From positions 1 through 38,197 of the forward strand of contig JACPGU010000004.1 of the NCBI GenBank assembly GCA_016188915.1: a DNA stretch of 38,197 nt, given 5' to 3'. Made by a program: the position numbers and the translations under genes. Each line of letters opens with the position of its first letter. Position 1 is the stretch's first letter. Origin of the DNA: Candidatus Microgenomates bacterium. GTDB lineage: Bacteria; Patescibacteriota; JACPGU01. The notes beneath the pieces were generated by a model that worked only from the letters and a program-made list of their open reading frames with translations, was not told the DNA's origin and ran no database searches. Of this stretch, positions 1 through 37,779 are shown in pieces.

Positions 1-135
1 AAAATCGGGCGCGCGCAAATCGGGAAAAGCAAAGAAAACTTTTTTGTGGGGCGTGCCGGTTTCCGGCACGGCGGCGGGGCGGCTTCATTGGGGGTTTTGC
101 TCAAAGTAGGTTCGTCCAAGGTTCAGAATTTCCCA
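1..135 (-). mobile_element. Possible 3' remnant of a CPR-type serine-recombinase/IS-like element with its GC-rich downstream palindromic tail (cut by window edge)
   Basis: Minus strand reads ...KWEILNLGRTYFEQNPQ* followed by a GC-rich tract with hairpin CGTGCCGG-ttt-CCGGCACG (52-70). From recall this resembles a recurrent CPR recombinase C-terminus plus tail; not verified by search. Confidence 0.35.
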
Positions 136-179
136 TTTAATGCAAAAACACAGGTTTATATCTGTGTTTTTGCATTAAA
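136..179. terminator. Perfect 18-bp inverted repeat (terminator-like hairpin)
   Basis: TTTAATGCAAAAACACAG (136-153) / CTGTGTTTTTGCATTAAA (162-179), 8-nt loop. Confidence 0.7.
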
Positions 180-187
180 AAATAGTG

Positions 188-216
188 TTGACCACGATTT
201 GATTTTGCGATAAAAT
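188..216 (+). promoter_or_regulatory. Sigma70-type promoter upstream of the 23S unit
   Basis: TTGACC (188-193), 17-bp spacer, TAAAAT (211-216). Confidence 0.6.
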
Positions 217-350
217 GTTTAAGCGTTCTGACATTACAATTATTAACCTGTTACATGTTTACTTTTGGTAAAAATGAAAGGGGGCAAAAGCGGCGTTAGA
301 TTGTATTTGTCATGATGTGACAAAGCCGCTTTCTGGGCGGTCTTTTTTAT

Positions 351-427
351 ACACGAATTTCACGAATTTTATACCAATTTCACGAATGCATTAGTGGCAT
401 TAGTATAAAATCCATGGCATTTGTGCC
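351..427. repeat. Short-unit (CACGAATTT) hairpin element, family 2
   Basis: CACGAAT at 352, 361 and 381; inner inverted repeat TTTTATACCAAT (367-378) / ATTAGTATAAAA (399-410). Confidence 0.65.
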
Positions 428-1040
428 ATAGAACCTTAAAAAATAGCAAAAAGAGTAAAATTGTAATTTTCGCATGAAAATAACGAGTTAAAACGCAAAA
501 AATTAATGTTTTTTGTGTTGTAGAGTTAGCTTAATTAAAAGCATATTGGTGGATACCTTGGGATAGATGGCCGAAGAAGGACGTGATAGGCTGCGATAAG
601 CTTCGGGAAGGCGCCTAAAGCCTGTGATCCGGAGATTTCCGAATGGGGAAACCCATGAGCGTAAAACGCTCATACTCCGACTTTGAGTCGGAGAGGTAAG
701 CGAGCGAACTGAAACATCCAAGTAGCTCGAGGAAAAGAAAACAAAGTTATTCCCTGAGTAGTGGCGAGCGAAACGGGAAGAGTCTAAACCATGCAGGTGT
801 CAAGGCCACAGCCGTTGCCTGCGTGGAGTTGCAAGAGCAAACGTTCTCAACTGTGATTGAGAGGCAAAGTAAAAAAACATATTGCTAGTCGAAGGTCTCT
901 GGAAGGAGCCGTCAAAGAGGGTGATAGCCCCGTAGACGAAAGCGGTATGTCTTTGCTGTTTGTTTCTTAAGTACTATAGGACACGTGAAATCCTGTAGGA
1001 AGCTGGGGAGACCACTCTCCAAGACTAAATACCATCTGTC

Positions 1041-1085
<45 letters not shown>

Positions 1086-1138
1086 GGGAGGGGAGTGAAA
1101 TAGAATATGAAACCATATGCTTACAAGATATAGGAGCC

Positions 1139-1316
1139 GCCGTACCTCACTGTGTTCGGTACGGAATGTCTAATATCTAATTGACCTAATTTCTAATAAA
1201 ATACCCAATAAATAACTTCCCAATAATTAAGTTTTGGGTTTTGTGATTTGGAATTTGTTTAGAAATTAGAACTTAGAAATTAGAAATTTCGTCCGCCGAG
1301 CATAGCGAGGTGCGAC
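1139..1316 (+). other. Intervening sequence in 23S helix 25 (E. coli ~550 site)
   Basis: ~175 nt between GGAGCC and GGTGACTG where a short hairpin is normal; outer stem CGTACCTCACTGTGTTCGG / CCGAGCATAGCGAGGTGCG (G-U wobbles) encloses an AT-rich CTAATT/TTAGAAA repeat hairpin. Confidence 0.85.
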
Positions 1317-1815
1317 GGTGACTGTGTTCCTATTGATGAATGCGCCAACGAGTTAGCTAGGCGTGGCAAGGTTAAGCCTTTAAAGGCGGAGCCGTAGTGA
1401 AAGCGAGCATTAAAATGCGAATAGTCGCGTCTACTAGACCCGAAACCAGGTGATCTACCCATGGTCAGGATGAACCCCACCGAAAGGTGTGGAGGAGGTC
1501 CGAACCCATTAGTGTTGCAAAACTACGGGATGAACTGTGGGTCGCAGAGAAATTCTAATCGAACCTGGTGATAGCTGGTTCTCTTCGAAATATATTTAGG
1601 TATAGCTCCCAACTTATAATCAGGAGGGGTAGAGCACTGGATGGGCATTTGTTCCTTCGGGGACAATGTCCAAACAAACTCCGAATACTTCTGACAGTGT
1701 TGGGAAGTCAGACTGTGGGGGCTAAGCTCCATAGTCGAGAGGGAAAGAACCCAGACCGCAATCTAAGGTCCCTAAACATGTCTAAGTGGAAAAGGAAGTG
1801 AGATTACTTAAACAA

Positions 1816-1932: not shown

Positions 1933-2041
1933 AGTGCGGAGCACTGACACACGAATTGCACAAATCTTTGAACGAATCTCACGAATTTATTCGTGGTATT
2001 AGTTTTTTGTTCGTGTGATTAGTGTGCCAATGCTCTGCATC
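1933..2041 (+). other. Intervening sequence in 23S helix 45 (E. coli ~1170 site)
   Basis: ~105 nt between GCGGATGTC and GACATGGTAG; stem GTGCGGAGCA / TGCTCTGCAT encloses CACGAAT/ATTCGTG repeats. Confidence 0.85.
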
Positions 2042-3461
2042 GACATGGTAGAAGAGCGTTCTTGATGCGCTGAAGCTGACGCGTGAGCGTTGGTGGAGCG
2101 TCAAGAAGTGAGAATGTTGGCATGAGTAGCGATAACTCCGGTGAAAAACCGGGGCGCCGTAAAACCAAGGTTTCCTGGACCACGGTAATCGTTCCAGGGT
2201 TAGTCGGTCCTAAGCCAAACCCGAAAGGGGCAGGCGATGGACAACAGGTTAATATTCCTGTACTGTCGTAGTATCGCCCAAATACTGTCCTTTGCAAGAT
2301 AAGATTTATCTTTTCGCGCATTGGGTGGTCAGCAATGGGGTGACGCATTTTTGAGCTTGGAGCATCTTTTGGCTATTGGTGTTTAAGCGTATTTGGTGGT
2401 TTGATAGGAAAATCCGCAAACAAATCCAGGTGCGCGAGTAAGACCCGCCGATGAGGCGGGGATTCCAGGGGAAAAGGTGACAAGAAAAACCTCTAGCGAG
2501 ATACTATGATAACCGTACCGTAAACCGACTCAGGTGGTTGAGGAGAGTATCCTCAGGCGTTTGGAAGAACCTTCGTTAAGGAACTCGGCAAAAAAGCGTG
2601 CGTAAGTTAGCGATAAGCACTGTCCCCCATCACTTTGCAAACATAATTTTGTGAAAACTAATGTTATAGCAACAAGAATACATTGGTTAATTTACTGATT
2701 ATGTTATCAAAGTGATGGGGGATCGCAGCGAAAGAGCCCAGCCAACTGTTTAGCAAAAACACAGGTCCCTGCTAACTCTTAAAGAGGATGTATAGGGGCT
2801 GACGCCTGCCCAATGCCAGAAGGTCACGGAAGGGGGTTAGCGTGCTTTGCACGCAAAGCTTCTAACCTAAGCCCTGGTGAATGGCGGCCCTAACTATAAG
2901 GGTCCTAAGGTAGCGAAATTCCTTGTCTGGTAAGTTCAGACCCGCACGAAAGGCGTAATGATCTGGGCGCTGTCTCAACGAAGGATCCAGCGAAATTACA
3001 ATAACGGTAAAGATGCCGTTTACTCACAGCAAGACGGAAAGACCCCATGAAGCTTTACTATAGCCTGACATTGAATTAAGATTTTGTCATGCGTAGCATA
3101 GGTGGGAGACTTTGAAGTTCCGCTTTTGGGCGGGACAGAGTCGTTAGTGAAATACCACCCTTATAAGATTTTGATTCTAACCGGTCGAAAGACTGAGACA
3201 GTGTTTGGTGGGTAGTTTGACTGGGGCGGTGGCCTCCTAAAATGTAACGGAGGCGTTCAAAGGTCAACTAGCTCCGGATGGAAATCGGAGCGATAGCGCA
3301 AAAGCAAAAGTTGGCTTGACTGCGAGACGAACATGTCGAGCAGGGCGGAAACGCGGATTTAGTGATCCTTCGATGCAACGTGGGTTGCTCGAAGCTCAAC
3401 GGATAAAAGTTACTCTGGGGATAACAGGCTGATCCTATCCAAGAGTCCACATCGACGATAG

Positions 3462-3566: not shown

Positions 3567-4294
3567 AAATAACATTGCGTTGTGTATCGGGAAACTGATA
3601 TACTAGTATTGACTTATATCGGTGAAGCCCTACTCTCTTTTACCAAACTAGAGAGAGGGTAATACCGAGGGAAGATTTAAGATTATGCCAAAAAGTAATG
3701 ATGCCTATATTGCTGGTTTTCTTGATGGCGATGGATCCATAATGGCTCAAATCATCAAGAAAAATGATTATCGATTTGGATTTCAAATCCGAACGAGTAT
3801 TGTTTTCTACCAAAAACAAGGCAAGGAAAGTTTTATGAATTGGTTGAAGAATCAATTACATTATGGATATATTCGCAAAAGAAAAGACGGAATGACAGAG
3901 TATGCCATAGTCGGTTTCAAGGAAGTTGAAGAGATTCTGAAAAGATTTCACTCGCATCTGATTCTCAAAAAAGAATTAGCGAGTCTAGTCCTAAAAATAG
4001 TTCAAATGCCAAAGAAACCAACAGTAAAACAATTTCTTGCAAACTGCGAAATGGTAGATAGATCAGCGATGTTTAATTATTCCAAAAAACGAAAGATAAG
4101 AACGCAACAGGTGAAAGAATACTTGGCAAAAAATAATCTTATTTCCCCGTAACGACTCATAATTATTCGGCAAAAATAATTATGGATGGTTTATTCAAGA
4201 AATCTTGGAATTCCATAACACGTCAACCCCTCCTCCGAGGCGTCGGAAAGGGTGAAGATATAGTCTGCGCCATTAGTAATAATGGAATAACGTG
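3567..4294 (+). mobile_element. Group I intron (728 nt) at 23S position equivalent to E. coli 2593
   Basis: Splits the conserved GAACGT|CGTGAGACAG; 5' exon ends in U with P1 AACGU/GCGUU; terminal G at 4294; P3 TTGAC (3609) / GTCAA (4222); R CGTAACGACT (4148-4157); S AAGATATAGTC (4255-4265). Confidence 0.95.
3685..4152 (+). CDS. Single-motif LAGLIDADG homing endonuclease, I-CreI-like
   Basis: YIAGFLDGDGSIMAQI motif and C-terminal FLANCEMVDRSAMFNYSKKRK match the recalled I-CreI pattern (YLAGFVDGDGSIIAQI; FLEVCTWVDQIAALNDSKTRK); stop codon overlaps the intron R element. Confidence 0.93.
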   Translation: MPKSNDAYIAGFLDGDGSIMAQIIKKNDYRFGFQIRTSIVFYQKQGKESFMNWLKNQLHYGYIRKRKDGMTEYAIVGFKEVEEILKRFHSHLILKKELASLVLKIVQMPKKPTVKQFLANCEMVDRSAMFNYSKKRKIRTQQVKEYLAKNNLISP

Positions 4295-4653
4295 CGTGAG
4301 ACAGTTTGGTCCTTATCTGCTGTGAGCGCAAGAAACTTGAGAGGGGTCGTCTCTAGTACGAGAGGACCGAGACGAACGAGCCTCTGGTGTACCAGTTGTT
4401 CTGCCAAGAGCATTGCTGGGTAGCTATCGCTCGGAAGAGATAAACGCTGAAAGCATCTAAGCGTGAAACTCGCCTCAAGACTAGGTTTCATTAAGATTCC
4501 TGGCAGATCACCAGGTTGATAGGCTGCAGGTGCAAGGGCAGTAATGTCTTCAGCCGAGCAGTACTAATAAATCGTAAGTTAATTCTACAACGCAGAGAGC
4601 GTTAGTTTTGCTTCTTGAGAATTTTACATTTTACTCTTTTTTGAATACATGAC

Positions 4654-4760
4654 TCTCGTGATTTTCAGCAGCAGGGCTACACCCGTTCCCATTCCGAACA
4701 CGGCAGTTAAGCCTGCTAGCACCGATGATAGCCTTTGGGCAAAAGTAGGTGATCGCGAGA
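4654..4760 (+). rRNA. rrf: 5S rRNA (short, ~107 nt)
   Basis: CCCGTTCCCATTCCGAACACGGCAGTTAAG core; terminal helix TCTCGTGAT / GATCGCGAGA; flanking stem TTTTTGAATACATG / CATGTATTCAAAAA. Confidence 0.95.
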
Positions 4761-4774
4761 ACCATGTATTCAAA

Positions 4775-4817
4775 AATCAAAGACACCCGGATATTTTTCT
4801 GGGTGTTTTTGATTAAG
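4775..4817 (+). terminator. rRNA unit terminator hairpin
   Basis: AATCAAAGACACCCGGA / TCTGGGTGTTTTTGATT inverted repeat right after 5S. Confidence 0.75.
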
Positions 4818-6110: not shown

Positions 6111-6205
6111 GGGGAGGCTAAGAAATTAAGAAATTAAGAAATTAAGAAAAATGGCCGTCGGGTACTCTTCTATTATTTTTTTACTTTTTTATTTTCTTAG
6201 ACAAA

Positions 6206-11147: not shown

Positions 11148-11396
11148 ATGTTTCAAGCCAAAAACATTCAGAAGAAATTTATTTTGATCGCCCTCTTTGC
11201 CATAATCTTTTTTGGCGCCCAGACTGCGGTCATTTTTTATGCCAAAAAAACGATCAAAAACGCGGTAGCTAATAAAGACGCTTCCAGTTTCACTAACGCG
11301 CAACTGGAGCAGATCAATAACAGATTGATATCTTTGGAGCAGAGAATTAATTATATTCAAAGTTATATTATTGCCAACAACAATAGCAAAAAATAG
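11148..11396 (+). CDS. Small single-pass membrane protein with C-terminal coiled coil (ATG 11148 preferred)
   Basis: KKFILIALFAIIFFGAQTAVIFY hydrophobic helix then heptad LEQINNRLISLEQRINYI; candidate promoter TTGACG-16-TAAAAT at 11062-11089 lies inside the longer track ORF. Confidence 0.6.
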   Translation: MFQAKNIQKKFILIALFAIIFFGAQTAVIFYAKKTIKNAVANKDASSFTNAQLEQINNRLISLEQRINYIQSYIIANNNSKK

Positions 11397-11445
11397 CAGA
11401 TTATTAAAAAGCCAGCGTGGTGGCTGGCAGAAGGAGGGTGGTGTT

Positions 11446-14400
11446 ATGAGAACTAATTTTAAAAAATGGATAACGGGAATGTTGTCCTTGGGGTTGCTTT
11501 TGACACTTATCGGGCCGATTAGTCCGGTCAAGGCTGGCACGCCTTTTATCCAACAGGTGCGCTATGTTAGTCCGACTACTATAGATGTTGTTTTCTCCGA
11601 AGCGATGGATGCCACTACAACGCAAAATACCGCCAACTACACCCTCGCTACCTCCGCCACCGGCGACAACCACGCCATCACCTCCGCTACTTTAGCCACC
11701 ACCAATACTGCCAATGACACCGCTCGTATCGTGGCCAATCTTGCCCTCATCAGCCCATCAATGAGCGACACTATTACTATTGCCACCGGCGCCGGCGCGC
11801 CGAAAAGCTCTGCTACCTCCACCAACCAGACCGATGGTTTCCCGATGATGGCGATGTTGCAACAGGCGACCGTCGCTATTTCTGAAATCCAAACAGCGGG
11901 CGGTACGGCTACCGATGAATTTATCGAACTCTACAATAGAACTCCCGGCGCCGTAGACCTGACCAACTGGAAATTGAAAGTTATGGATAGCGCTGGTAAT
12001 GAAGCAGAATTGATCTCTAATATTGGCATTGCGTCACTGGCAGGCAACAAATTCGCGCTTTTTACTCATGCGACCGGTTATGATGGCACACCGACTGGCG
12101 ACGGGACTTATTCGGCAGCAGCTATCGGCGACGATAGCACCGTTCTTTTGTACGACAATAATAATATAGTAAGAGACATTGTCGGCTTTGGTTCGGCCAA
12201 GGTCAAGCAAGGTGATGTCATTACTTCCAACCCGGCGGCTAACGGTAGTTTGGAACGAAAATCGCATCCCGGCGCGACGGCTGAATCGATGGCGAGTGGA
12301 GGAAGCGACGCTACGCAGGGCAATAACTATTCTTCTTCTAACAATTTTTATGATTTCGTTACCCAGACGGTAGCTGTTCCGCAAAGCACAGCATCTCCTG
12401 CCGAAGCGCCGGTTGTAGGTGGCGGAGGAGGCACAGGTTTCGGCGCGGGGCGACCCAATATTGAATTCATGCCGATCATGCAATGGAAAGATGGCGCCGA
12501 TCTCAAAGTCATCGCGCGCGTTTTCGATCCGGAAACCGCCGAAAGTTCTCTGACCACCGCGCTTCATTACAAAGTCAATGCCGGCTCTTGGACTTCGGTC
12601 TCCGGTTTCTCCATGGGTAGCAATTTTTTCAAATTTATTATTCCCGACGCGGCTTTCGCTACCACGGATACTATCAGCTATTTTTTGAAAGCAACAGACG
12701 GCGATAGCAACGATCGCTACATGACACAGAATCCAACACTGGATATGTCTGACACGACGACCGATACCGACGCGCAAAGCAATCCTTTTACTTTCTCTAT
12801 CGTGGATGGCTCTGGCTGGGCTCGCACTATTTCAGGCACAGTCACCGATTCGGCCAGCGTAGCGGTGGCCAACGCCATTGTTTATTTGGTAGGCACCGGA
12901 TTTTCCGCCACCACTGCCGGCGATGGTACCTATACTATCTCTAATGTGACCGATGGTATCTATGATGGTCGCGCGTTTGCTTCGAGCAAAGGCGATATGT
13001 GGAAGAACGGCGTGACGGTCAATGGCGGTAACGCGACGGGCGTTAACTTTTCTCTGCCGGCTAGTTTCTCTGGCGGTATGGGTGGTGATTTCTCTCGTCC
13101 GAAGGTAATGTTCACCGCGCCTTTTGAAGGTATGAGCGGCGCGCCGGAAAATATCAATACCGGTTTTGCGCCGATTATGATTGGCTTTAACAAAGACATG
13201 GACGCTTCCACCTTTGTCAGTAATGATAATGTTTTTATCAGCACTGATGGTTCTACCGCGGTGGTAGGTCTGACTCTGACGCGCGCCTATGATGGGGGAA
13301 CAAAACAATTGACTTTGTCCTCCACGACCGCGCTGACTAAGGGGACGAATTATGTGGTCGTTTTGACGCCGAATGTCAAAGACGCTTCAGGTAACAGTAT
13401 TGACGGTAATACCTCATCGGGCAATTTCATTTTCAGTTTTACCACCGCTTTTGACGGCTCAACTTTTGGTGGCACGGGCGGGGCGGTTTTCCCTCCTTAT
13501 GTGACGGGAACAACGCCAAGCTTTGGCGCTTTCAACGTTGCGACCAATGCCAAAATGCGAGTGATTTTTTCCGACCCGATGGATACTTCCACTATTAGCA
13601 CCACCACGATCAAAGTTTATGAAGGCGCCAGCTCAACGGCTCTGTCGGGAACAACAGTGACGCTCGATACTTCAACGAGAAAGACCGCAACCATCACGAC
13701 CGCAAGCGCTTTGACCGCGAGCACCAAATACACCATCAAGGTATTCGGGGGAGTGAAATCCGCGACCGGTATTTTTGGCCGACAGACAACAACAGAAGAA
13801 ATGATGCGCGCGGAATTTACCACCGGCACCGCTACCGACTCTGCCGCGCCACGGGTGGCGGGAGGCAACCTCGATATTTATAAATCAACAGCGACTTGCG
13901 CTGTTTCGGCGGTAGATTGTATCACCAATGTTCCGGGCGGAATAGGAGTAATCAATCTCGGTTTCACTGAAAATATGGATCCTTCTACCATCACCAGTTC
14001 CTCTGTCGTTTTGAAGAAGGGGAGTGTCGAGGTCTCAACAACGGTGAGCTTTGACCCGCTTAATAATACTGTTACCATCGCGCCACTGACGGCTCTCTCG
14101 CCTCTGACGACCTATACGCTCACCGTAGCGACGACGGTTCTCGACAGTGTTAGCAACGCACTCGATCAGGATACAGTAACAGCAGGATCGCAAGGATATA
14201 CCGCACTCTTCAAAACTTCCGATACAGTAGATACTACCGCGCCGACCGTTCTTTACGCGGCAGCTGACGACTTCTCGGTCGCGGTGACTTTCTCCAAGCC
14301 AATGAACGCCAGCAAATTGGGCGATACCGGCTATACTAATTCTGTTTTGAACAAAGACAATTATTCAACCATAAAACAAGGAGCGGCTGGAACAGATTTT

Positions 14401-17400
14401 GCCGGTGGGGGAGGAACAGCAGTTCCTTTGACGAATGCCAGTGTCACGTATGACGCGATGAGCAATACGGCCATCATTAAAGGAGTGCAACTGACAGCGG
14501 GCAACGACTTATATATAGTAGTAAATAATGCCGCGGTCAAAGATGTTTCCGGCAATCTCTTGAACGGTAGCGCCAACGCCTCTACTTCTCCTATCAAAAG
14601 TAGCGCGACTACCGGTGGCATGATTGGTCCCGGTGGCGGGGGAATGATGAATTTCTCTTCCGGTGAAGGATCATTTACCACCATGACCGGCTTCGGCGGT
14701 TTTGAGGCCAGCGCTATGGGCACCCGACCGGTAGGCGTGATGCCGATGAACCAGATGGCAGGGTTGACGAGCAAGTACTTTATTGACTTGCCGGTAACGA
14801 AAGCCATTGTCGATGCCTCCACGCTAGTGCTTACTTTCCCTTCAGGATTTGATGTGACCAATGCTGCCAAAGACGCGGCCAGTCCATCGAGCAAAGATAT
14901 GAATGGTCCGGGCGCCGGCACTATTACCTTTGATAATACCTATAGTAGCGATGGTGTGTCATCTGATGTTTTGGCTCGCACCGTGACGGTCAAATTTGAT
15001 GTGACTGGTACGCCATCAGCCACTGATTTCTTGCACCTGGATCTGGATGGTATCAAAAATAGTTCTATTCCTAAGGACTTCAATACTTCCGGCTATACAG
15101 TAGATATGAAGACGAGAGATAGCGCCGGAGTGCAAATGGATTCCAGTACTTCCATGCCGTTTTTCATCACCGCGGCCGGTACTTATACAATTTCCGGAAC
15201 GATTACCGCGGCCGGCGCTTCTACCGGCACGGCCAAGATCTTCCTTGGCTCGCCAGCCACCGGACCAATGGAAACAACTTCCATCGCTTTCTCTAATGGT
15301 AGTGCTACCTATACCTTCAACAATCTGCCCGCCAGCGACTATTGGCTTTCTACCGAACCGTCGGTAACGCTCGGCGCTAATGATTATTTCGGTATCAATA
15401 ATTCAGAACCAATCAGGCTTTCCGCTACCAACAGTCCTTTGACGAAAAATCTGACTTTGGCGGCAGCTTCCGGTGGCGCGGCAGTGACGGTCAATATCGT
15501 AGGAACATTCAATTCATTAGAAGGGAATATCGATATCTTTGCCGGTGGCTGGAGTGGCTTCGCGGTCAAAACTGTAGAACTTAACGACACCTACGGCGCT
15601 GGCTCTCCGTATTCAACGACACTCCGCATCCCGTCAGGATCTGACGGCACCTGGTATGTGGGAGTCGGTCCGGCAATGCCAAAAGGCGCCATGGGCGGTA
15701 TGATGCCAGAGATGTCCTTTGTCCCACCGCCATCACAAGAAGTGAAGGTGACCAGTGGCACTGGCACTGCCAGCCCTTCTACTTTGACATTCACTGTTTC
15801 TACCGCCAATCGCACGATCTCTGGTACGGTAACTGACGGCACGACAGCGATCTCTAATGCCGAAGTTTTCGCCTATCAGCCGATGGGTGGATTCGGCACG
15901 CCACCGACCAAGACGGCCTCGGACGGCACCTTTACCTTGAAAGTAGCTGACGGCACCTACAAAGTCGGCGCAATGTTGCCCGGTCTTTCCAAACCGGTAG
16001 AACAATCCGTCACTGTTAGTGGCTCTAATGTTTCTGGCATTACTTTGAAACTTTCTAAACCAAATTACACTATCTCCGGTAAAATGACTGACGGTACCAA
16101 CGGCGTTTCCTACGCGCCGGTCTGGGGCTACAACGAAACGACGGGAGAATATTCCAATACGATGACTGACTCTTCCGGTAATTATATTCTTTACGTTAAC
16201 GCCGGCACCTGGAAGGTAGAAGGCGACGCCCCGGGCTACGGCAAGATGCCTTCTATTACAGTTACTGTCACCACGACCTCGCAATCCAATCAAAATCTGC
16301 GTCCGGGATCAACCAATATGGCTACTGTTTCCGGCACAGTGTCTATCGGCGGATCGGCTACTTCCAAAGTCAACGTTTGGATTGAAGGCAATGATTCCAG
16401 TGGCGGGAGATTCAATAATTATACGGTAACCGCCTCTGACGGCACGTACTCTTTGAAAGTACCCGGTGGTACCGGCTATACTGTTCGCGCTTGGACACCA
16501 AATTACGGCGATCTAACACCGGTCGTTATCGGCGCTATTGCTGAAGGAGCTGCGCTTACCGGCAAAGATTTCACTATCGCTTCCGGCGCGACAGCGACCA
16601 TTACCGTCAAGTTCACCAATACTTCCGGACTTTCTGCGACCCAAGGTTTCGTGGACATCTTCAATCCGACCACGGGCCGTGGCTCGCACTTGGACATTAA
16701 AGATATTACCAGCAATCCAACCGCGGCCGGTACTATTGCGCTACCCAAAACATCGGGCTCTGATACCTACAAGGCATTCGTGCATATTCCGGGTTTCGGC
16801 GAATTCGCGCCGACAGTCGTTTCGGGATCTTTGGCGCAGGATTTCACCCTAACCGCGGATAGCAACCTCAATTTCAGTCTACCGACTAGTAGGCGCACCA
16901 TTACGGGGCGAGTCTATGTAGATACCAATGCGGACAGCGATTACGATTCAGGAGAAGAGATTCGCGAAGCCTTCGTCTGGCTATTTAATAAAACTACTGG
17001 TTCACACAACGGTACGCAGACCGCTTCTGACGGCACCTACACTCTAAATGTTTCCGACGGCACCTACGATATCGGCGTGGATAAGCCAAGCTACACTTCT
17101 CCGGCGCCAACGGCTCTGACTATTTCTGGCAATTTAACTGATCAAAATTTCGTTCTCTCTGCTTCAGACAGAACCATTGGTGGTACCATCACCTCCGATG
17201 GCTCGACAGCGCTTACGAGTGCGTGGGTTTGGGCAGAAAAAGTAACCTCACTTACCGATCTTACGCCAGCTGGTGGTTGGGCGGGAGGACAAACCGATCC
17301 TTCAGGCGTCTACTCGCTTGCGGTATCCGCCGGATTTTGGCAAGTGAGAGCGGTCGCGCCTGGTTATCAAGAAACAAAATACAAAGTAGGAACAACACCC

Positions 17401-19590
17401 ACGGTTTTGCAGGTAGCTGGCAGTAATTTGACCGGCAAAAATATTACTCTGATCGCGCAAACCGGCTTTACCGCCAAGGCGCCACAGTCGCAATCTATCA
17501 CACCGGGCAATGCCACGACTTTCAACGACACTACTAATGGTGTATCGCTGGAAATTCCCGCTAATACACTCGGATCTGATTCCTCGGCCAATACTTCTCT
17601 GACCGTCACGGAAGTAGCCGCTCCTGAAACTGGTGTCAAAGCACCACTTGGGGGAGTAGGCGATGAAGTTTCGGCGACCAAGAAAGTTTCAGCAAGTGAG
17701 TCGCAATCTATTACTACCTTTGACACTGGTTCAGCTACCATTACCCTCACCTACAGTGATGCCGATATTCCGGCCGGAATTTCAGAAAGCCAGCTTACTT
17801 TGAGCTATTATGATACGACCGCCGGCCAATGGACGGAAATCCCTGCTATTCAAGACACCACCCTCAATACTTTGACGGGTACGACCACTCACTTCTCGAC
17901 TTTTGCGCCGACCTATCCGACCGGCACCAATCCGCCTTCTACCCCCGGTACTCCGTCCGGTACGGCAGGTAATGGTTCGGTAGCTCTTTCTTGGACAGCT
18001 TCTACTGACGATATTGGTTTGGCGGGATATGAGGTTTATCGTTCTACTACGTCTGGTGGCACCTATACCAATATTTCCGGCGATGTAGATGAAAATGGTG
18101 GCTGGTATCCAGCTCGCCTGGTCGCTGGGACTTCCTATACTGACAGCACTGCCTCTAATGGCACTACTTACTATTACAAAATTTCCGCTTATGACGCGGC
18201 CGGCAATCAATCCACTTCGTCTTCAGCTTCAGCTGGGCTTACTCCTGCTGGCGGAGGCGGAGGAGGCGGAGGAGGAGGGTATATCGCGCCAACTCCATCC
18301 AATACGATCAACGGCTCGGTAGTGGCCACCAAGGGCTTGGGCGGTATTACAACTCTAACCAACAGTGATTCTACCGCGGTCAAAATGACTGTTCCGGCTA
18401 ATGCTGTAACCAACGATACTACCTTTGCTGCTACTGCTATTTCTGCCACTGACGCAACCGTCATTCAGCCAGCTACCAGTACCAATCTATCTGTCGTTGG
18501 CAAGGTCTACAATCTAAGCGCTAAACAGGGCAGTACTGCCGTAACAGTATTTGCTCAACCAGTAACACTAGAATTTACCTACAAAGATACCGATATCCCA
18601 ACTGGCGTTACGGAAAATAATATCGCTGTTTATTACTTTGACACTACTTCTAACAGTTGGGTCAAAATAACCACTTCCTCTATTGATAAAACGGCAAATA
18701 AAATTACCATCTTAGTAGAACACTTTACGCAATTTGCTATTTTGGCTGATACGACCCCGGCTTCACAGACACCGGTCGAACAAACGGCAGGGGAGACGCC
18801 AGCAACACCAACGACAGGAGTCACTCCTTCCAATAATCCGGCAGAATATAATTATGAATATGTTTCCCAGAGCGTCTATCCGACTATCGCGCCTTTGGCT
18901 TCCCAAAGTGTAACCATCAAATTGAAAAATACCGGCACGGCTACTTGGTACAAAACCGGTAGTTATCCTGTCAGACTCGGTACCTCGCACCTCAAAGACA
19001 GGACAAGCAAATTCCACGATGAGACCAATTGGCTCTCCGGCAACAGAGTTGCTTCCTTCCAAGAGGCTAGTGTTGCTCCGGGGGAGACAGGTACTTTCAC
19101 CTTCAATATGACCGCGCCTCTTAATAAAGGTAGCTACAAGGAATACTTCCAGCCGGTCGTGGAAGGACTAGCTTGGTTAAAGGATATCGGTATTTTCTGG
19201 ACGGTAACAGTGGACGAAACCTACAGCGCCAAATGGATGGGGCAAGGATTCAACTCCGGCACCAATACTGATGGTACTAAAACTGTCTGGATAGAATTCC
19301 AGAATACCGGTACCGCGACTTGGAAAAAGACAGGGGACAATCCGGTGCGCCTCGGTACTTCTCACGAGAAAGATAGGGCTTCGATGTTTGCCGATTCTTC
19401 CTGGCTTGCTACCAATCGCGTAGAGCTCTCGCAGACGGAAGTAAAACCGGGGGAGACAGGACGATTTGAATTCAAAATCAAAATCTCGGCCGGCAATGCT
19501 GGCACCACTTACCGCGAATACTTCCAGCCGGTAGCTGAATACCTGACCTGGATGGAGGATTGGGGAGTATATTGGGATATAGCAATCTGA
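11446..19590 (+). CDS. Giant secreted surface protein (~2,714 aa): signal peptide, Ig-like (Big_5-type) domains, lamin-tail domain, carboxypeptidase-regulatory-like beta repeats, ZU5-like domains, FN3, Gly9 linker, two NBR1-Ig-like domains
   Basis: AAGGAGG SD before ATG 11446; signal peptide ...ISPVKA; ISEIQTAGG..DEFIELYN (LTD); V.FSEAMD/FNKDMD/FSDPMD (Big_5); repeated ISGTVTDG...GTY; PSTPGTP..VALSWTASTDD..YEVYRS (FN3); KNTGTATW..PVRLGT..PGETGTF..YFQPV. Confidence 0.9.
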   Translation: MRTNFKKWITGMLSLGLLLTLIGPISPVKAGTPFIQQVRYVSPTTIDVVFSEAMDATTTQNTANYTLATSATGDNHAITSATLATTNTANDTARIVANLALISPSMSDTITIATGAGAPKSSATSTNQTDGFPMMAMLQQATVAISEIQTAGGTATDEFIELYNRTPGAVDLTNWKLKVMDSAGNEAELISNIGIASLAGNKFALFTHATGYDGTPTGDGTYSAAAIGDDSTVLLYDNNNIVRDIVGFGSAKVKQGDVITSNPAANGSLERKSHPGATAESMASGGSDATQGNNYSSSNNFYDFVTQTVAVPQSTASPAEAPVVGGGGGTGFGAGRPNIEFMPIMQWKDGADLKVIARVFDPETAESSLTTALHYKVNAGSWTSVSGFSMGSNFFKFIIPDAAFATTDTISYFLKATDGDSNDRYMTQNPTLDMSDTTTDTDAQSNPFTFSIVDGSGWARTISGTVTDSASVAVANAIVYLVGTGFSATTAGDGTYTISNVTDGIYDGRAFASSKGDMWKNGVTVNGGNATGVNFSLPASFSGGMGGDFSRPKVMFTAPFEGMSGAPENINTGFAPIMIGFNKDMDASTFVSNDNVFISTDGSTAVVGLTLTRAYDGGTKQLTLSSTTALTKGTNYVVVLTPNVKDASGNSIDGNTSSGNFIFSFTTAFDGSTFGGTGGAVFPPYVTGTTPSFGAFNVATNAKMRVIFSDPMDTSTISTTTIKVYEGASSTALSGTTVTLDTSTRKTATITTASALTASTKYTIKVFGGVKSATGIFGRQTTTEEMMRAEFTTGTATDSAAPRVAGGNLDIYKSTATCAVSAVDCITNVPGGIGVINLGFTENMDPSTITSSSVVLKKGSVEVSTTVSFDPLNNTVTIAPLTALSPLTTYTLTVATTVLDSVSNALDQDTVTAGSQGYTALFKTSDTVDTTAPTVLYAAADDFSVAVTFSKPMNASKLGDTGYTNSVLNKDNYSTIKQGAAGTDFAGGGGTAVPLTNASVTYDAMSNTAIIKGVQLTAGNDLYIVVNNAAVKDVSGNLLNGSANASTSPIKSSATTGGMIGPGGGGMMNFSSGEGSFTTMTGFGGFEASAMGTRPVGVMPMNQMAGLTSKYFIDLPVTKAIVDASTLVLTFPSGFDVTNAAKDAASPSSKDMNGPGAGTITFDNTYSSDGVSSDVLARTVTVKFDVTGTPSATDFLHLDLDGIKNSSIPKDFNTSGYTVDMKTRDSAGVQMDSSTSMPFFITAAGTYTISGTITAAGASTGTAKIFLGSPATGPMETTSIAFSNGSATYTFNNLPASDYWLSTEPSVTLGANDYFGINNSEPIRLSATNSPLTKNLTLAAASGGAAVTVNIVGTFNSLEGNIDIFAGGWSGFAVKTVELNDTYGAGSPYSTTLRIPSGSDGTWYVGVGPAMPKGAMGGMMPEMSFVPPPSQEVKVTSGTGTASPSTLTFTVSTANRTISGTVTDGTTAISNAEVFAYQPMGGFGTPPTKTASDGTFTLKVADGTYKVGAMLPGLSKPVEQSVTVSGSNVSGITLKLSKPNYTISGKMTDGTNGVSYAPVWGYNETTGEYSNTMTDSSGNYILYVNAGTWKVEGDAPGYGKMPSITVTVTTTSQSNQNLRPGSTNMATVSGTVSIGGSATSKVNVWIEGNDSSGGRFNNYTVTASDGTYSLKVPGGTGYTVRAWTPNYGDLTPVVIGAIAEGAALTGKDFTIASGATATITVKFTNTSGLSATQGFVDIFNPTTGRGSHLDIKDITSNPTAAGTIALPKTSGSDTYKAFVHIPGFGEFAPTVVSGSLAQDFTLTADSNLNFSLPTSRRTITGRVYVDTNADSDYDSGEEIREAFVWLFNKTTGSHNGTQTASDGTYTLNVSDGTYDIGVDKPSYTSPAPTALTISGNLTDQNFVLSASDRTIGGTITSDGSTALTSAWVWAEKVTSLTDLTPAGGWAGGQTDPSGVYSLAVSAGFWQVRAVAPGYQETKYKVGTTPTVLQVAGSNLTGKNITLIAQTGFTAKAPQSQSITPGNATTFNDTTNGVSLEIPANTLGSDSSANTSLTVTEVAAPETGVKAPLGGVGDEVSATKKVSASESQSITTFDTGSATITLTYSDADIPAGISESQLTLSYYDTTAGQWTEIPAIQDTTLNTLTGTTTHFSTFAPTYPTGTNPPSTPGTPSGTAGNGSVALSWTASTDDIGLAGYEVYRSTTSGGTYTNISGDVDENGGWYPARLVAGTSYTDSTASNGTTYYYKISAYDAAGNQSTSSSASAGLTPAGGGGGGGGGGYIAPTPSNTINGSVVATKGLGGITTLTNSDSTAVKMTVPANAVTNDTTFAATAISATDATVIQPATSTNLSVVGKVYNLSAKQGSTAVTVFAQPVTLEFTYKDTDIPTGVTENNIAVYYFDTTSNSWVKITTSSIDKTANKITILVEHFTQFAILADTTPASQTPVEQTAGETPATPTTGVTPSNNPAEYNYEYVSQSVYPTIAPLASQSVTIKLKNTGTATWYKTGSYPVRLGTSHLKDRTSKFHDETNWLSGNRVASFQEASVAPGETGTFTFNMTAPLNKGSYKEYFQPVVEGLAWLKDIGIFWTVTVDETYSAKWMGQGFNSGTNTDGTKTVWIEFQNTGTATWKKTGDNPVRLGTSHEKDRASMFADSSWLATNRVELSQTEVKPGETGRFEFKIKISAGNAGTTYREYFQPVAEYLTWMEDWGVYWDIAI

Positions 19591-24910: not shown

Positions 24911-27900
24911 ATGTCCAAAATCGTCTCTTTTTTCAAAAAAAATAGGAAAGCGGTCAACCTCAAAGGACTGGTTTCCTCTCTTTTGGTGGCCTCTATCGCT
25001 TTAATGCCCTTGGCTGGTGTGCGCGCTGTGGCTGGTGTCACCATCACCGCTTCCGGCGGTGCTACCAATCTGGTAGAAGGCGGTTCGACGGCTCTGGCCT
25101 ACGGCTATACTTTTCAGCTTGGTGGCGCTAGTAGCGATGTTCTTCAAACTACTGCTACCGATGCTGATGGTGCAATTTATACGGCTGGTGGCTATGTCGG
25201 CACTGCGGATTTGGACCCGACCAAGGCTATCGGCAATAAGACTTCCAACGGTGGGACTTTTTTCATGCTTTCCATGAACGAATCCAGCGCTGTCGGTAAC
25301 GAGAACTACCTTTCCAAGGTCAATGCCGACGGCACACTGGCTTACACTTACTCTTTTGGTAATAGCAATTCTGACGCCTTAGTGGATATGAAGTTAGACA
25401 GCGCCAAGAATGTTTATTTGCTCCATTATTTCAAAGGAACGGTAGATTTTGATCCGACAGCCGGTGTTGACAACAAGACTTCTGGTAGTGCTGGCGCTGA
25501 TTGGGCGACGGCTTTGGTGAAAATTAACGCCGACGGTTCCTATGGCTGGGCGGAAAATTTTCCGGTATTTATTCAAAAAATGCGTGTTTCCTCTACCGGT
25601 ATTTATCTGACCGGCTACGCTAACGGTACAATAGATTTCAACGGTACTGGTGCCGGCGCTTCCGATATCCAGACTACTGATAGCTTTGACGCTTTCGCGA
25701 CCAAATTGAACACTGATGGTTCCTATGGCTGGACCAAGCTAATTACAGGTAGTGGCACCAGTTATGGCGCGGCTATTGATGCCGATGCTTCCGGCAATGT
25801 CTTTGTCTCTGGATATTTTATGAACGATTTGGATTTGGATCCGACTGGGACCGAGGCTATCATTTCTGCCACCGGTTCAACCGATATCTTTTTGGTAAAA
25901 ATAAATAATGATGGCACCTATGGCTACGGTAAAGCTTATGGCAATACCGGCACCAACACACCCTATGATTTGATTGTTGATTCTACCGGTGATGTTTATC
26001 TGGCTGGTACTTTTGAGGGGACGATTGATTTTGACGCTGTTGCTTACGGCGGAGCGGGGGACAATCATACTTCCAATGACAAAACCGATATTTTCTTAAC
26101 TAAAATTAATGCCAATGAATCTTACGCCTGGACGCTGACTTTTGGTGGTGCCTTGGTTTCTGATCCGGCCTCTTCTGTAGGCCGCGACCGTATCTCTTCT
26201 TTGAGCCTGGATTCTTCTGACAATATATATCTAGGTGGATTTGTCTCTTCAGGGAGTGCTGTTGATATGGATCCCACTGCCGGGACAGATTCTCAAACAC
26301 CTGGCTTTTTGAACCGTACTGGTTTTGCGACCAAAATCAATGCCGATGGCACTTACTCTTGGAGCTATCTTTTTGCTGGTGGCAATAACGAAGTGACTTC
26401 GGTAGTCACTAATTCTTTGGGACGCGTCTATATCGGCGGATTTTTCCAAGACACCTTGGATACTGATGTCGTTTCCGGCGTTGATACCCAAACTTCCGCT
26501 GGCAGTTTCGATGGTTTTGTTACGATGTTGGTGCCGAATGATTTGTACACCATCGCCTTAGACGATGTGCCGACGGCTGATGTGACGGTTAGCCTCACTC
26601 CCGGTAACGACCTAACGGCTTCTGCTAGTTCTGTCATATTCACACAATCTACTTGGAATGTTGACCGCTTGATTTACTTGACAGCGGTAGATGACGAATG
26701 GAACGAATCGGCTGGACAAACCAGTTTCATTGAGCATACTTCTAGTTCTGCCGATATGGCTTTTAATGGTCTGACGATCGCTGATTTGACTGTCAGTCTG
26801 ACCGATGGCGGTTTGACCGATGACGATGTGATCCGTGGTACGACCGCTTCCACGCCTATTCAAGTAGCGGAAAACAACACTACTTCGGCAACCTATACTA
26901 TTTCTCTTAACGATCAGCCGGTCTCGGATGTGGTTATTACGCCTACACCTGCTGACGCGACGCAAGCTTCTATTGCCCCGGCCACTCTAACTTTTACCCG
27001 TTCTAATTGGAATACTCCGCAGACCGTGACGGTGACCGCTATTGATGACGCGGCCATTGAAACTAACGTGCACTCAACTTCTATCGCCAATGGGGGAGCA
27101 AGTATTGTTTCGGCCGACCCGATTTTCAACGGCATAGTGGTTGGCCCGAATATTACTGTCAATATCATTGACAATGATAGTCCGGCGGTGAATATCACCG
27201 AATCGGCTTCCTCTACCGATATTACCGAAGGTGGCGCGACTGATAGTTATGACGTGGTCTTGTCCACTTTGCCTTCCGCTAACGTCTTGGTTAATATCTC
27301 AACCGATACAGCGCAAGTGACCGCTCCGGCTTCTTTGCTTTTCACTCCGGCTGACTGGAATGTGCCACAAACGGTGACTGTCACCACTACTGATGATAAT
27401 TCAGTGGAAGGCGCGCATACTTCTACTATTACGCATACTTCGTCTTCTTCTGACATCGGCTATAACGGGCTGACTATTATTCCTGTTACAGCCAATATTA
27501 CCGATAACGATACGGCTGGTATTACCGCTACCGAATCTGGCACTACTGATGTGACCGAAGGTGGCGCGACTGACACTATTGATTATGTTCTCCTGTCTCA
27601 ACCGACAGCAGATGTTAGTATCGCTTTGACGGTTGGCGCGCAAGTTTCGCTATCGGCGACTACTTTGACCTTTACTGCCGCTAACTGGAATACGCCACAG
27701 ACCATTACCGTAACGGCTGTTGACGATAATGTCGCGGAGTCTGCTACTGTCGAAACTATCTCTTATGCCGTCACTTCATCTGATACGAATTATAATGGTA
27801 TTCTAATTACGACTACCAATATCAATGTTATCGACAATGACATCGCCGATATCACCGTTATGCCTACTGGCGGAACAGCCAATGTCACCGAAGGGGGCGC

Positions 27901-30371: not shown

Positions 30372-30455
30372 GTACGAATTTTAGCTAATTAACACTAATT
30401 TCGCTAATTTGAAACTAATGGCACGAATTGGATTCAAATTAGCGCAATGAGCGCG
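30372..30455. repeat. Short-unit hairpin element, family 2
   Basis: Units ACGAATTTT/CACTAATTT/CGCTAATTT/CACGAATT; perfect IR CGCTAATTTGAA (30402-30413) / TTCAAATTAGCG (30433-30444). Confidence 0.65.
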
Positions 30456-36077: not shown

Positions 36078-36112
36078 AAATAACAAATAAGAAATAAGAA
36101 ATAAGAGATAAG
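36078..36112 (+). repeat. Heptamer tandem array (AAATAAG x5, degenerate)
   Basis: AAATAAC AAATAAG AAATAAG AAATAAG AGATAAG between mraY and ftsW. Confidence 0.75.
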
Positions 36113-36138: not shown

Positions 36139-37254
36139 GTGTCTCGTTTTTCTATTAGAAAACCAAAAATAGATATTGTCTTGGCGATGATTACTATCGC
36201 TTTGGTGGCTTTTGGTTTGATTATGCTCTCGTCGGTTTCGGCGGTAAATAGTTTTGAGCACTTTGGCTACAACAATTTTTACCTTTATCGACAAATGGGA
36301 TTTTTTGCTGTTGGTATGGTAGGTTGGATTTTTTTTCAAAATCTCAATTACCATTATTGGAAAAAAATAGCCAAGCCTTTTTTCCTTATCAGTCTTCTCC
36401 TTACTTTTTTAGTTTTGGTACCAGGCATAGGCTTTAATTACAATGGCGCATCGCGTTGGCTCAATCTTGGTTTTTTTCTTTTTCAGCCCTCCGAACTTTT
36501 GAAATTGGCTTTGGTTGTCTATCTGGCTAGTTGGTTTGATAATATGAGGTCTGAGATAGGATCTTTTCGCAAAGTTTTTGTTCCATTCGTTATTTTGATC
36601 GGTTTTATTGCTGCTATTATTTTGAAACAGCCAGATATGGGTACTTTTTTGGTGACAGGATCAGTGGCGGTGGCCATCTATTTTGTTGCTGGCGCGCGCG
36701 TAATTCATATAGGATTTTTGTTGGGAGGAGGCATTATGGGCATTATCGCCCTAATCAAGGCAGCGCCGTATCGCATGGCCAGACTCTTGGTTTTTTTAGA
36801 TCCTGAAAAAGATCCTTTGGGAGCGGGCTTTCATATCAACCAGGCCTTAATCGCGGTTGGCTCTGGTGGTTGGTGGGGGAGAGGTTTCGGCAAATCCGGA
36901 CAAAAATATACCGGCTACATTCCCGAAGCGCCAGGCGATTCTATTTTTGCTATTATTGCCGAAGAACTGGGATTCGTTAAACTAGTTTTCGCGCCTATTT
37001 TGCTTTTTATTATTTTTGCTTGGAGAGGATTTCATATCGCGAGATTTGCGCCTGATTTTTTTGGTAAACTTTTGGCTTTTGGCCTGACTTCATGGATTAT
37101 TTTTCAAGCTGTTTTGAATATTTCTACGATGGTAGCGTTAGTTCCGCTGACTGGTGTGCCACTACCGTTTATCAGCTATGGCGGTTCGGCTATGATTACT
37201 AATCTTTGCGCCGTCGGAATACTTTTGAATATATCGAAGAATAGTAACAAGTAG
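36139..37254 (+). CDS. ftsW: SEDS glycosyltransferase FtsW
   Basis: GASRWL, FQPSELLKL, QPDMGT, QALIAVGSGG, GVPLPFISYGGS. Confidence 0.95.
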   Translation: MSRFSIRKPKIDIVLAMITIALVAFGLIMLSSVSAVNSFEHFGYNNFYLYRQMGFFAVGMVGWIFFQNLNYHYWKKIAKPFFLISLLLTFLVLVPGIGFNYNGASRWLNLGFFLFQPSELLKLALVVYLASWFDNMRSEIGSFRKVFVPFVILIGFIAAIILKQPDMGTFLVTGSVAVAIYFVAGARVIHIGFLLGGGIMGIIALIKAAPYRMARLLVFLDPEKDPLGAGFHINQALIAVGSGGWWGRGFGKSGQKYTGYIPEAPGDSIFAIIAEELGFVKLVFAPILLFIIFAWRGFHIARFAPDFFGKLLAFGLTSWIIFQAVLNISTMVALVPLTGVPLPFISYGGSAMITNLCAVGILLNISKNSNK

Positions 37255-37261
37255 ATTAAAT

Positions 37262-37770: not shown

Positions 37771-37779
37771 TAAATACCT

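Follow-up and report, generated by a model that had tools for sequence, protein, structure and literature searches.

Where the intervening sequences (IVSs) of bacterial 23S rRNA genes come from and what the IVS protein (PF05635) does are questions that have stood open since about 1990, and the protein family now holds more than 7,900 clusters at 90% identity among the matches listed. The stretch of DNA from a Candidatus Microgenomates bacterium analysed here (38,197 nt of one contig, hereafter the window) raises both questions at once. Its 23S rRNA gene carries an IVS without a gene, its cell-division (dcw) cluster carries a gene for a four-helix-bundle (4HB) protein of the IVS-protein family between inverted repeats, and the two elements share a 21-nt sequence. 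A first-pass annotation of this DNA had read the IVS as a gene-less copy of the resident dcw cassette. How, then, are the two elements related, and what does their relation say about the origin of IVSs? We argue below that each is probably a separate member of one family of palindromic insertions, and that this family is very widespread.

Insertions in and near the 23S rRNA gene

At the start of the window stands a 23S rRNA gene, recognised by the Rfam LSU model at 2232 bits, and a 5S gene comes next. When the 23S gene is aligned with E. coli rrlH, about 170–180 extra nt appear at 1138-1317, between E. coli positions ~540 and ~552; the aligner reports them as 85 + 83 nt (1138-1222 and 1235-1317), and they are an insertion relative to the Rfam LSU model as well. 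As is typical of IVSs, the extra sequence sits at the tip of a variable helix, helix 25, and extends it by a long stem. It folds into a single continuous hairpin of about 90 pairs (−83.9 kcal/mol, z = −11.5), and the sense strand folds better than the antisense strand. The core of the hairpin is composed of a left array of CTAATTNN(N) units (1170-1197) and a right array of TTAGAAAT units (1259-1287), with inner units of the CCCAAT type and the apex near 1228. Outside the core lies a G+C-rich clamp, which alone folds at −36.1 kcal/mol in the sense strand versus −29.7 kcal/mol in the antisense strand. A near-identical clamp, CCGTGCCTCACTTGCGTTCGGCACGGAAT, surrounds a family member at another 23S site in locus L061, and we therefore regard the clamp as part of the element, with which it travels, and not as part of the native helix. 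The insertions in this part of the window are as follows.

352 to 425, plus strand: hairpin ahead of the 23S gene, made of CACGAATT / CATTAGTG units (37-nt inverted repeat, 76%; fold z −3.1)
1138 to 1317, plus strand: helix-25 IVS, a gene-less member of the CTAATT-unit family forming one long hairpin (E. coli and Rfam alignment, fold, similarity to other hairpins)
1138 to 1167, plus strand: left half of the G+C-rich outer clamp, CCGTACCTCACTGTGTTCGGTACGGAAT, pairing with 1289-1317 (fold; recurrence of the clamp in L061)
1168 to 1288, plus strand: A+T-rich hairpin core (unit arrays, exact 21-mer at 1176-1196, fold)
1289 to 1317, plus strand: right half of the G+C-rich outer clamp (fold, comparison with L061, strand energies)
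1950 to 2046, plus strand: helix-45 IVS, a gene-less hairpin of CACGAAT-type units (E. coli alignment, fold, architecture)

The helix-45 IVS consists of 97 extra nt after E. coli position 1185 and folds at −51.4 kcal/mol (z −5.0). Judged by its architecture, it would belong to the same general class as the helix-25 IVS with a different unit type, and CGAAT-type units do flank 4HB genes in 14 of 83 cassettes elsewhere. The hairpin at 352-425 has the same CACGAAT unit type as the helix-45 IVS and, again by architecture, would be a gene-less member of another arm class. A LAGLIDADG intron is also present in the window's 23S gene.

A gene-bearing element between ftsW and murG

The cell-division cluster of the window runs mraZ-rsmH-ftsI-mur-mraY-ftsW, with FtsW encoded at 36139-37254. 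The gene-bearing element follows ftsW, and a smaller hairpin lies further upstream in the cluster.

30385 to 30455, plus strand: small hairpin with CTAATTT-type units between mraZ and rsmH (inverted repeat 30395-30419/30427-30451, 84%; fold z −4.3)
37255 to 37327, plus strand: left arm of the gene-bearing element, with a CTAATT-unit array at 37261-37295 and then an inner arm up to the start codon (inverted repeats, fold)
37328 to 37708, plus strand: gene for the 4HB protein, 126 aa, PF05635 (23S_rRNA_IVP) and TIGR02436, co-directional with ftsW and murG (profile scores)
37709 to 37780, plus strand: right arm of the gene-bearing element, with an inner arm and then an AATTAG-unit array at 37737-37770 (inverted repeats, fold)

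The left arm begins one base past the ftsW stop, the right arm stops just before the murG ATG (37781), and the arms thus fill the whole spacer. They contain two inverted repeats (37262-37281/37751-37770, 20 nt, 100%; 37276-37295/37746-37765, 95%) and, in the predicted fold, form a long stem of about 65 bp around the ORF. The pentamer TAAAT stands on both sides of this cassette and was not seen around other copies. The mraZ-rsmH hairpin is possibly related to the CTAATT-unit family as a weak member.

That the ORF encodes a four-helix-bundle protein, as the first-pass annotation had recognised, is confirmed by profile scores that pass both family cut-offs (PF05635, 45.1 bits against 33.8; TIGR02436, 65.1 against 24). 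The protein matches PDB entry 2RLD, which has five chains, with E = 9.4e-10 over residues 17-120; its GANY.EA and K.E..E columns are invariant across 13 diverse 4HB members, and it is 68–82% identical to 119 cluster representatives among the matches listed. PADLOC and PHROGs gave no match to the protein, and Rfam gave none to the cassette at E ≤ 1. No plus-strand promoter-like site was seen between ftsW and the 4HB ORF of the window's cassette, where the count for the region is at the level of shuffled sequence.

The shared sequence and its spread

Both sequence matches in the first-pass annotation were reproduced. Nucleotides 1176-1196 of the IVS (TCTAATTGACCTAATTTCTAA) are the exact reverse complement of 37746-37766, and the 16 nt shared directly with 37266-37281 are the first 16 nt of the same segment. 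A third copy of the 21-mer, direct and with two mismatches, lies at 37275-37295, and the complementarity extends over 26 nt at 96% (1172-1197 against 37745-37770). None of 100 dinucleotide-preserving shuffles of the window produced a match, even with up to three mismatches.

We scanned public genomes, taking one genome per species, for the 20-mer CTAATTGAYCTAATTTCTAA and found at least 118 loci with at least 124 copies, as compared with 2–44 loci expected by chance if the whole collection is taken as 30–50% G+C; it was on such an enrichment over A+T-rich expectation that the first-pass annotation had staked its proposal beforehand. Among the 118 loci listed, about 75 are labelled CPR/Patescibacteria, 33 carry other labels, and 10 are unclassified. 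The labels outside CPR are Bacteroidota and relatives, Gammaproteobacteria, Bdellovibrionales, Omnitrophota, Chlamydiae, and Persephonella, several of which rest on the binning of metagenome-assembled genomes (MAGs), whose labels can be wrong; in their 23S fragments, L061 and L105 stand no nearer to E. coli than the CPR window does. Locus L052 holds a full cassette between genes for enoyl-CoA hydratase, acyl-CoA carboxylase, and acyl-CoA dehydrogenase. To our knowledge, CPR bacteria lack gene content of this type, and the position of the cassette amid such genes therefore indicates that the spread beyond CPR is real.

The 124 copies listed, a sample selected on the exact 20-mer to which the following proportions apply, take five forms.

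Inverted partner within 200 nt, giving a gene-less hairpin of about 60–230 nt: 71 of 124 copies (57%)
Arms 350–520 nt apart: 8 of 124 copies, at 7 loci
Partner belonging to the neighbouring intergenic hairpin: 5 of 124 copies
Solo, with no partner found: 33 of 124 copies
Cut by a contig end: 7 of 124 copies

A 4HB ORF lies between the arms at six of the seven loci with 350–520-nt spacing, and its product is 52–67% identical to the protein of the window. The full and empty forms of a repeat-bounded element, which the first-pass annotation had postulated, are thus both found, yet their hierarchy looks reversed with respect to that annotation, the gene-less form being common and the gene-bearing form a minority in this 20-mer-selected sample. 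Arm pairs 650–1140 nt apart are two neighbouring hairpins around ordinary genes with no other cargo, with the exception of L109, which is ambiguous.

A common architecture is recognisable: CTAATTNN(N) units form the outer arm and CCCAAT/CCAAT units the inner arm, which leads to the apex, and the complement of these units stands on the right. In gene-bearing copies, the gene occupies the apex. Its variable N-terminus (MTNDQ..., MPNNPNDK...) is encoded by the inner left arm, and past its stop codon comes the inner right arm, complementary to the left one. Family members have terminal inverted repeats, as do miniature inverted-repeat transposable elements (MITEs). The elements lie in intergenic spacers, occasionally in-frame in ORFs, and at the tips of several 23S helices, which bears out the claim that one arm family occupies both rRNA helices and the spaces between operon genes. 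The hairpins often fill the entire intergenic spacer, so that in many loci the distance to either neighbouring gene is only −15 to +15 nt, and one copy is read in-frame within a 2,521-aa ORF as ...LEIRSIRN.... Two copies are present in the 38-kb window, three on one 802-kb contig (L007, L048, and L110), and at least three loci in several MAGs. The 20-mer was absent from 2.9 million viral contigs, and a phage vector is therefore not supported.

Arms around 4HB genes in general

We also considered 80 metagenome loci chosen by protein similarity only (54–74% identity), of which 74 genes had both flanks. A flanking inverted repeat above the 95th percentile of controls was present around 70% of these 74 4HB genes versus 4.7% of 1020 control genes. 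Together with the six 20-mer loci, this agrees with the expectation of the first-pass annotation that 4HB genes elsewhere would be flanked by matching arms. All visible arms are arrays of 7–9-nt units with an xxxxAAT-like core, and the unit types are CTAATT, GACGAAT, GACCAAT, TTCCAAT, TTTGAAT, GTCAAAT, and AAATCCTA. In 76 of 83 cases, where 42 would be expected, a 4HB protein and its nearest neighbour among the proteins have arms of one class. The gene and its arms thus evolve as one unit, in which a change of protein lineage goes with a change of arm type. For the role that the first-pass annotation had raised as possible, in which the protein would mobilise or process its own cassette, this linkage is the only indirect support. 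None of the 80 protein-selected loci lies inside rRNA.

The neighbours of the 4HB gene are ftsW and murG in the window and VWA/pilin or ATP-synthase genes in relatives. The gene upstream is co-directional in 37 of 38 cases (p = 3e-10), with a median gap of 42 nt, and the gene downstream in 26 of 38 (Fisher p = 0.0014 for the asymmetry). This orientation bias, together with the lack of a promoter-like site ahead of the window's ORF, fits a promoterless gene that would depend on read-through, and it implies that the 4HB gene is under selection for expression.

Copies in rRNA

Among the loci listed, the motif lies inside 23S rRNA at three. L061 and L105 each have one member near E. coli position 270 plus another in helix 25, and L090 has a member near E. 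coli position 1870. For 12 of 13 rRNA copies, the sense strand folds as well as the antisense strand or better, often by 6–24 kcal/mol, as would be expected if the ribosome tolerates only well-folding insertions. The presence of one family in several 23S helices and in DNA outside rRNA is the strongest support for an insertional origin of such IVSs. Members at several different 23S sites in other organisms likewise favour the proposal, made in the first-pass annotation, that the IVS is an inserted mobile hairpin.

Site occupancy, mobility, and symmetry

Relatives for the ftsW-murG site were found through FtsW. Two of them (L141 and L142; FtsW 73% identical) have a 4HB cassette at the same junction, with a protein only 38% identical to that of the window and with arms of AAATCCGA/TCGAATTT units. 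In another two (L143 and L144; FtsW 68%), the spacer measures 80 nt and contains a small hairpin that is unrelated, and in L145-L147 (FtsW 66–68%) the gap between ftsW and murG is 8–12 nt and the site is empty. Across these relatives, independent insertion or replacement appears much more likely than divergence in place. The arrays themselves change by slippage, as a single 9-nt unit was gained or lost between L131 and L136, which belong to the same population.

Signs of a transposition mechanism were sought in several ways. No consistent direct repeat that could be a target-site duplication was found around 71 mapped hairpins, although a 2–4-nt duplication of A+T is possible. No transposase or reverse transcriptase was seen next to any inspected copy, the sole cargo between arms being the 4HB gene, and no reverse transcriptase was found among the window ORFs scanned, a set that excludes two giant ORFs. 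Identical 4HB proteins (P0055, P0048), searched for new contexts as a sign of jumping, always stood in the same context, and so offered no hint that the element had jumped very recently. Within single populations, no hairpin was seen to be present in some members and absent from others.

The symmetry of the arms was compared between strands. In 65 oriented cassettes, sense G·U mismatches numbered 149 versus 139 for antisense (p = 0.6), and transversions were commoner still; in intergenic hairpins, the strand preference of the fold relative to the direction of flanking genes was mixed and inconsistent. RNA-level selection outside rRNA is therefore not supported. As there is no excess of sense-strand G·U pairs in the cassette arms, their complementarity outside rRNA looks like a DNA-level property, either a palindrome or two equal protein-binding ends, and not like a selected mRNA structure. 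The earlier suggestion that the arms are kept as a processable RNA stem accordingly finds some backing in the rRNA copies, which fold better in the sense strand, and none in the cassette arms.

Relation of the IVS to the resident cassette

One objection is that A+T-rich sequences of low complexity match here by chance alone, and the arms are indeed A+T-rich and made of short repeated units. However, this is refuted by the absence of any match in 100 shuffles, by at least 118 loci where 2–44 would be expected, and by the inverted partner within 200 nt in 57% of the listed 20-mer copies, and we give it practically no weight. The first-pass annotation's central proposal, read strictly, makes the resident dcw cassette the parent of the IVS, which would have arisen in this genome when a copy lost its gene, in the manner of an autonomous element and its MITE. 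In its favour, both elements stand on one 38-kb stretch, share the exact 21-mer, and have left arms that are 72% identical over 53 nt. Nevertheless, in an arm-by-arm comparison the resident cassette ranks only 58th of 140 against the left arm of the IVS and gives no reportable match to the right arm, and when artificially emptied it ranks 33rd of 141 in similarity to the IVS. The whole IVS is closest to hairpins of L105, L061, L090, L089, and L026 (72–76% over 114–185 nt), and hairpins of other genomes, namely those of L061, L089, L026, L017, and others, are closer to it than the resident cassette is. The G+C-rich clamp occurs in the IVS and in the rRNA copy of L061 and not in the resident cassette. 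The 21-mer common to both elements is the family consensus, found in at least 118 loci. Descent from the resident cassette is thus very improbable, and the IVS and the ftsW-murG cassette are better regarded as independent members of one family. This family provides sequence evidence that rRNA IVSs may start as insertions of mobile hairpins.

Possible mechanisms

In rRNA, the transcript of the element would fold into a ~90-bp extension of helix 25, which RNase III would remove without religation, as in known IVSs. In an operon, the element would be co-transcribed and the 4HB gene expressed by read-through, with arm symmetry maintained at the DNA level. For the way in which the elements insert, we favour with low confidence an Avd-like 4HB protein that would recognise the unit arrays of its own arms and bring in an enzyme of the host or one acting in trans. 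A bolder version, conceivable if doubtful, gives the 4HB protein the part of specificity factor in a new class of mobile hairpins. Bound to its own 7–9-nt arrays, in either DNA or RNA form, it would work with such an enzyme to copy the palindrome or insert it; the gene-less hairpins would be non-autonomous passengers, and the family would be the source of rRNA IVSs across bacteria. If true, this would explain the abundance of PF05635.

In the IS200/IS605 and REP-RAYT systems, palindromes are mobilised as single-stranded DNA hairpins by Y1 HUH transposases. It is conceivable, if doubtful, that a Y1 HUH transposase (IS200/IS605 TnpA or RAYT-like) mobilises the present hairpins in trans as single-stranded DNA, as with REP/REPIN and PATE, and that the 4HB gene is only a cargo that profits from read-through. 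Palindromic elements without target-site duplication, the tight, spacer-filling placement of the copies between genes, and the DNA-level symmetry of the cassette arms without G·U bias all fit such a transposase, and a faint Y1_Tnp match does occur in L145, in a gene that runs off the start of the locus about 2 kb upstream of ftsW with two genes between. Against it, no HUH gene flanked by such arms was found among about 225 loci, and the whole element is one palindrome and not two subterminal hairpins. Arm type also follows the tree of the 4HB protein, which a pure cargo role predicts only if cargo and arms are simply co-inherited, and the asymmetry between upstream and downstream orientation fits selection for expression better than replication-coupled insertion. 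It is improbable that the hairpins are instead host modules for RNA processing or stability that arose by vertical descent and replication slippage and are not mobile DNA. Their location between co-transcribed genes, where they fill whole spacers, the change of unit number by slippage, and the sense-strand fold favoured by rRNA copies would all suit such modules. However, an identical 20-mer across phyla, including in a non-CPR β-oxidation-type operon, copies in-frame in a giant ORF and at differing 23S sites in differing organisms, and cassette arms without G·U bias do not; nor does an ftsW-murG site that is empty at 66–68% FtsW identity and holds an unrelated cassette at 73%.

Comparison with known systems

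As the window and the related loci show, an IVS can be one copy of a repeat whose other copies fill operon spacers, lie within ORFs, or in some cases have a 4HB gene as their cargo, and the gene with its arms is one evolving unit that crosses phylum boundaries. The 30-year-old conjecture of mobile IVSs is thereby open to concrete tests. For annotation, the hairpins occupy many CPR intergenic spacers, and there is a risk that they are annotated as coding sequence or taken to be native expansion segments of rRNA. ORF-bearing IVSs, their excision by RNase III, and the mobile-element conjecture are already known; our literature search found no description of the cross-phylum family of hairpins and cassettes.

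Already in 1990-1993, as quoted in PMC4990558, IVSs were proposed to be mobile elements, with mobility as the function of their ORF. 23S IVSs with an S23p/4HB ORF are described in Leptospira, Coxiella burnetii, Xanthomonas, and Brucella, and the Coxiella IVS has tandem GACAGAT heptamers just upstream of its ORF, varies in their copy number between strains, and is excised by RNase III (PMC4990558). The ORF-bearing 23S IVSs resemble the window cassette in that a PF05635 protein is encoded inside a long stem bounded by inverted repeats, and the arm units of 4HB cassettes recall the Coxiella heptamers. They differ in that the gene-bearing copy here is outside rRNA and the rRNA copy is gene-less, and in that the present arms are base-conserved across phyla, mostly as gene-less hairpins. 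Insertions are plentiful in the rRNA genes of CPR bacteria; a few of them encode 23S_rRNA_IVP, and ORF-containing and ORF-less insertions occur at the same sites (PMC11270868); in that survey, we found no mention of a link to a genome-wide hairpin/cassette family.

ORF-less IVSs of helix 25 and helix 45 in Salmonella, Yersinia, Proteus, and others are helix-extending hairpins that RNase III removes without religation, and their sporadic distribution suggests horizontal transfer (PMC4990558, PMC11270868). The window IVSs use the same two helices, and their sequences are unrelated to the Salmonella type. We know of no report that places Salmonella-type ORF-less IVSs in a repeat family with further copies in intergenic DNA.

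Avd, the accessory protein of diversity-generating retroelements (DGRs), binds nucleic acid and reverse transcriptase. Its four-helix-bundle fold (bAvd, PDB 4DWL) is homologous to that of the window's protein, and the Avd-like PF05635 is the commonest Pfam family around DGR reverse transcriptases (PMC10053308). Unlike DGR Avd, the window's gene and its inspected relatives have no reverse transcriptase, template, or variable repeat beside them.

Correia/nemis elements of Neisseria, RPEs of Rickettsia, ERIC, and REP/REPIN-RAYT are short intergenic inverted repeats that are co-transcribed and form RNA hairpins. RNase III acts on Correia transcripts. RPEs are inserted in RNA genes and, in-frame, in ORFs, and the CTAATT-family copy within the 2,521-aa ORF is likewise in-frame. 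MITE-like palindromic repeats of bacteria have been reviewed in general (PMC3184786). The family described here differs from them in having no target-site duplication found and no transposase partner, in carrying a 4HB protein as its cargo, and in building its arms from arrays of 7–9-nt units that vary in copy number and whose sequence is common to several phyla.

Insertions in the ribosomal RNA loci

Besides the intervening sequences (IVSs) in helices 25 and 45, the 23S rRNA gene of the window carries further insertions relative to E. coli, which are listed below together with the open reading frame encoded in the longest of them.

Window 794-871: 23S insertion, after E. coli position ~277
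Window 2264-2320: 23S insertion, after E. coli position ~1404
Window 2600-2722: 23S insertion, after E. coli position ~1685
Window 3567-4290: intron-like 23S insertion of ~720 nt, near E. coli position 2595
Window 3685-4152: LAGLIDADG_1 endonuclease ORF, within the intron-like insertion

The Rfam alignment of this 23S reaches a local end at 3616, yet the 3' part of the gene picks up again near 4290. The insertion at 2600-2722 is a near-perfect stem of 25 bp (fold z -8.3) and does not consist of repeated units. We also identified two additional long hairpin insertions in the 23S 5' domain of L061, a locus from another genome (6536-6752 and 7058-7256); these consist of AAAAGTT- and CAAAACT-type units with G+C-rich clamps, and the IVS-like insertions of this domain total four in 1.3 kb.

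Neither a 16S gene nor a tRNA was found upstream of the window 23S (window 1-523), and the 23S-5S pair appears to be unlinked from 16S. A promoter-like TTGACC...TAAAAT stretch is present near 190-220. The 5S rRNA is flanked on both sides by a 25-nt inverted repeat of 88% identity (4638-4662 and 4752-4776), which is probably the 5S processing stem.

Repeat elements at other sites

Two further 8-nt tandem arrays were located in the window, at 6117-6200 and 36078-36103: four copies of TAAGAAAT upstream of an fpg-like gene, where the complementary arm is degenerate, and four copies of AAATAAGA between mraY and ftsW, where a partner arm is missing. Both may be decayed members of the unit-array hairpin class. 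Internal repeats of ~330-590 nt were found in two giant ORFs of the window, which also share a conserved C-terminal motif, GAATACTTCCAGCC..., in four copies.

Window 11371-19590: giant ORF, 2,739 aa
Window 24911-29542: giant ORF, 1,543 aa

In L141, the closest relative, each of three successive dcw spacers harbors a unit-array hairpin, and the unit classes all differ.

L141 1140-1410: murF-mraY spacer, TTCTAATTCC/CTAAAA units
L141 2415-2510: mraY-ftsW spacer, AAATCCTA units
L141 3617-4147: ftsW-murG spacer, AAATCCGA units

Cassettes with the four-helix-bundle gene occur elsewhere as well, one within an ATP-synthase operon, where the genes for the alpha and gamma subunits follow directly downstream (L131-L140, 3001-3363), and another with a gene for a giant VWA protein on one side and T4SS-pilin-like genes on the other (L121-L130); both run in the same direction as their neighbours and are stable over many samples. 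In several unrelated genomes (L028, L077, L095, L097, L021 and L167), the apices and arms of the A+T-rich hairpins enclose short palindromes rich in G+C, for example CCGCCCTTGCGGATCCGCACGGGCGG, CCTGCCTGCCGGCAGGCAGG and GCCTGCCCCGGGCTTGACCCGGGG, which may represent a second, nested palindromic element. Finally, a family hairpin at 2033-2152 of L117 lies in-frame within an ORF of 2,521 aa, in whose product it reads ...ITNCSNQVPSTNDQLGQLEIRSIRN...; it thereby resembles the Rickettsia palindromic elements found in coding genes.
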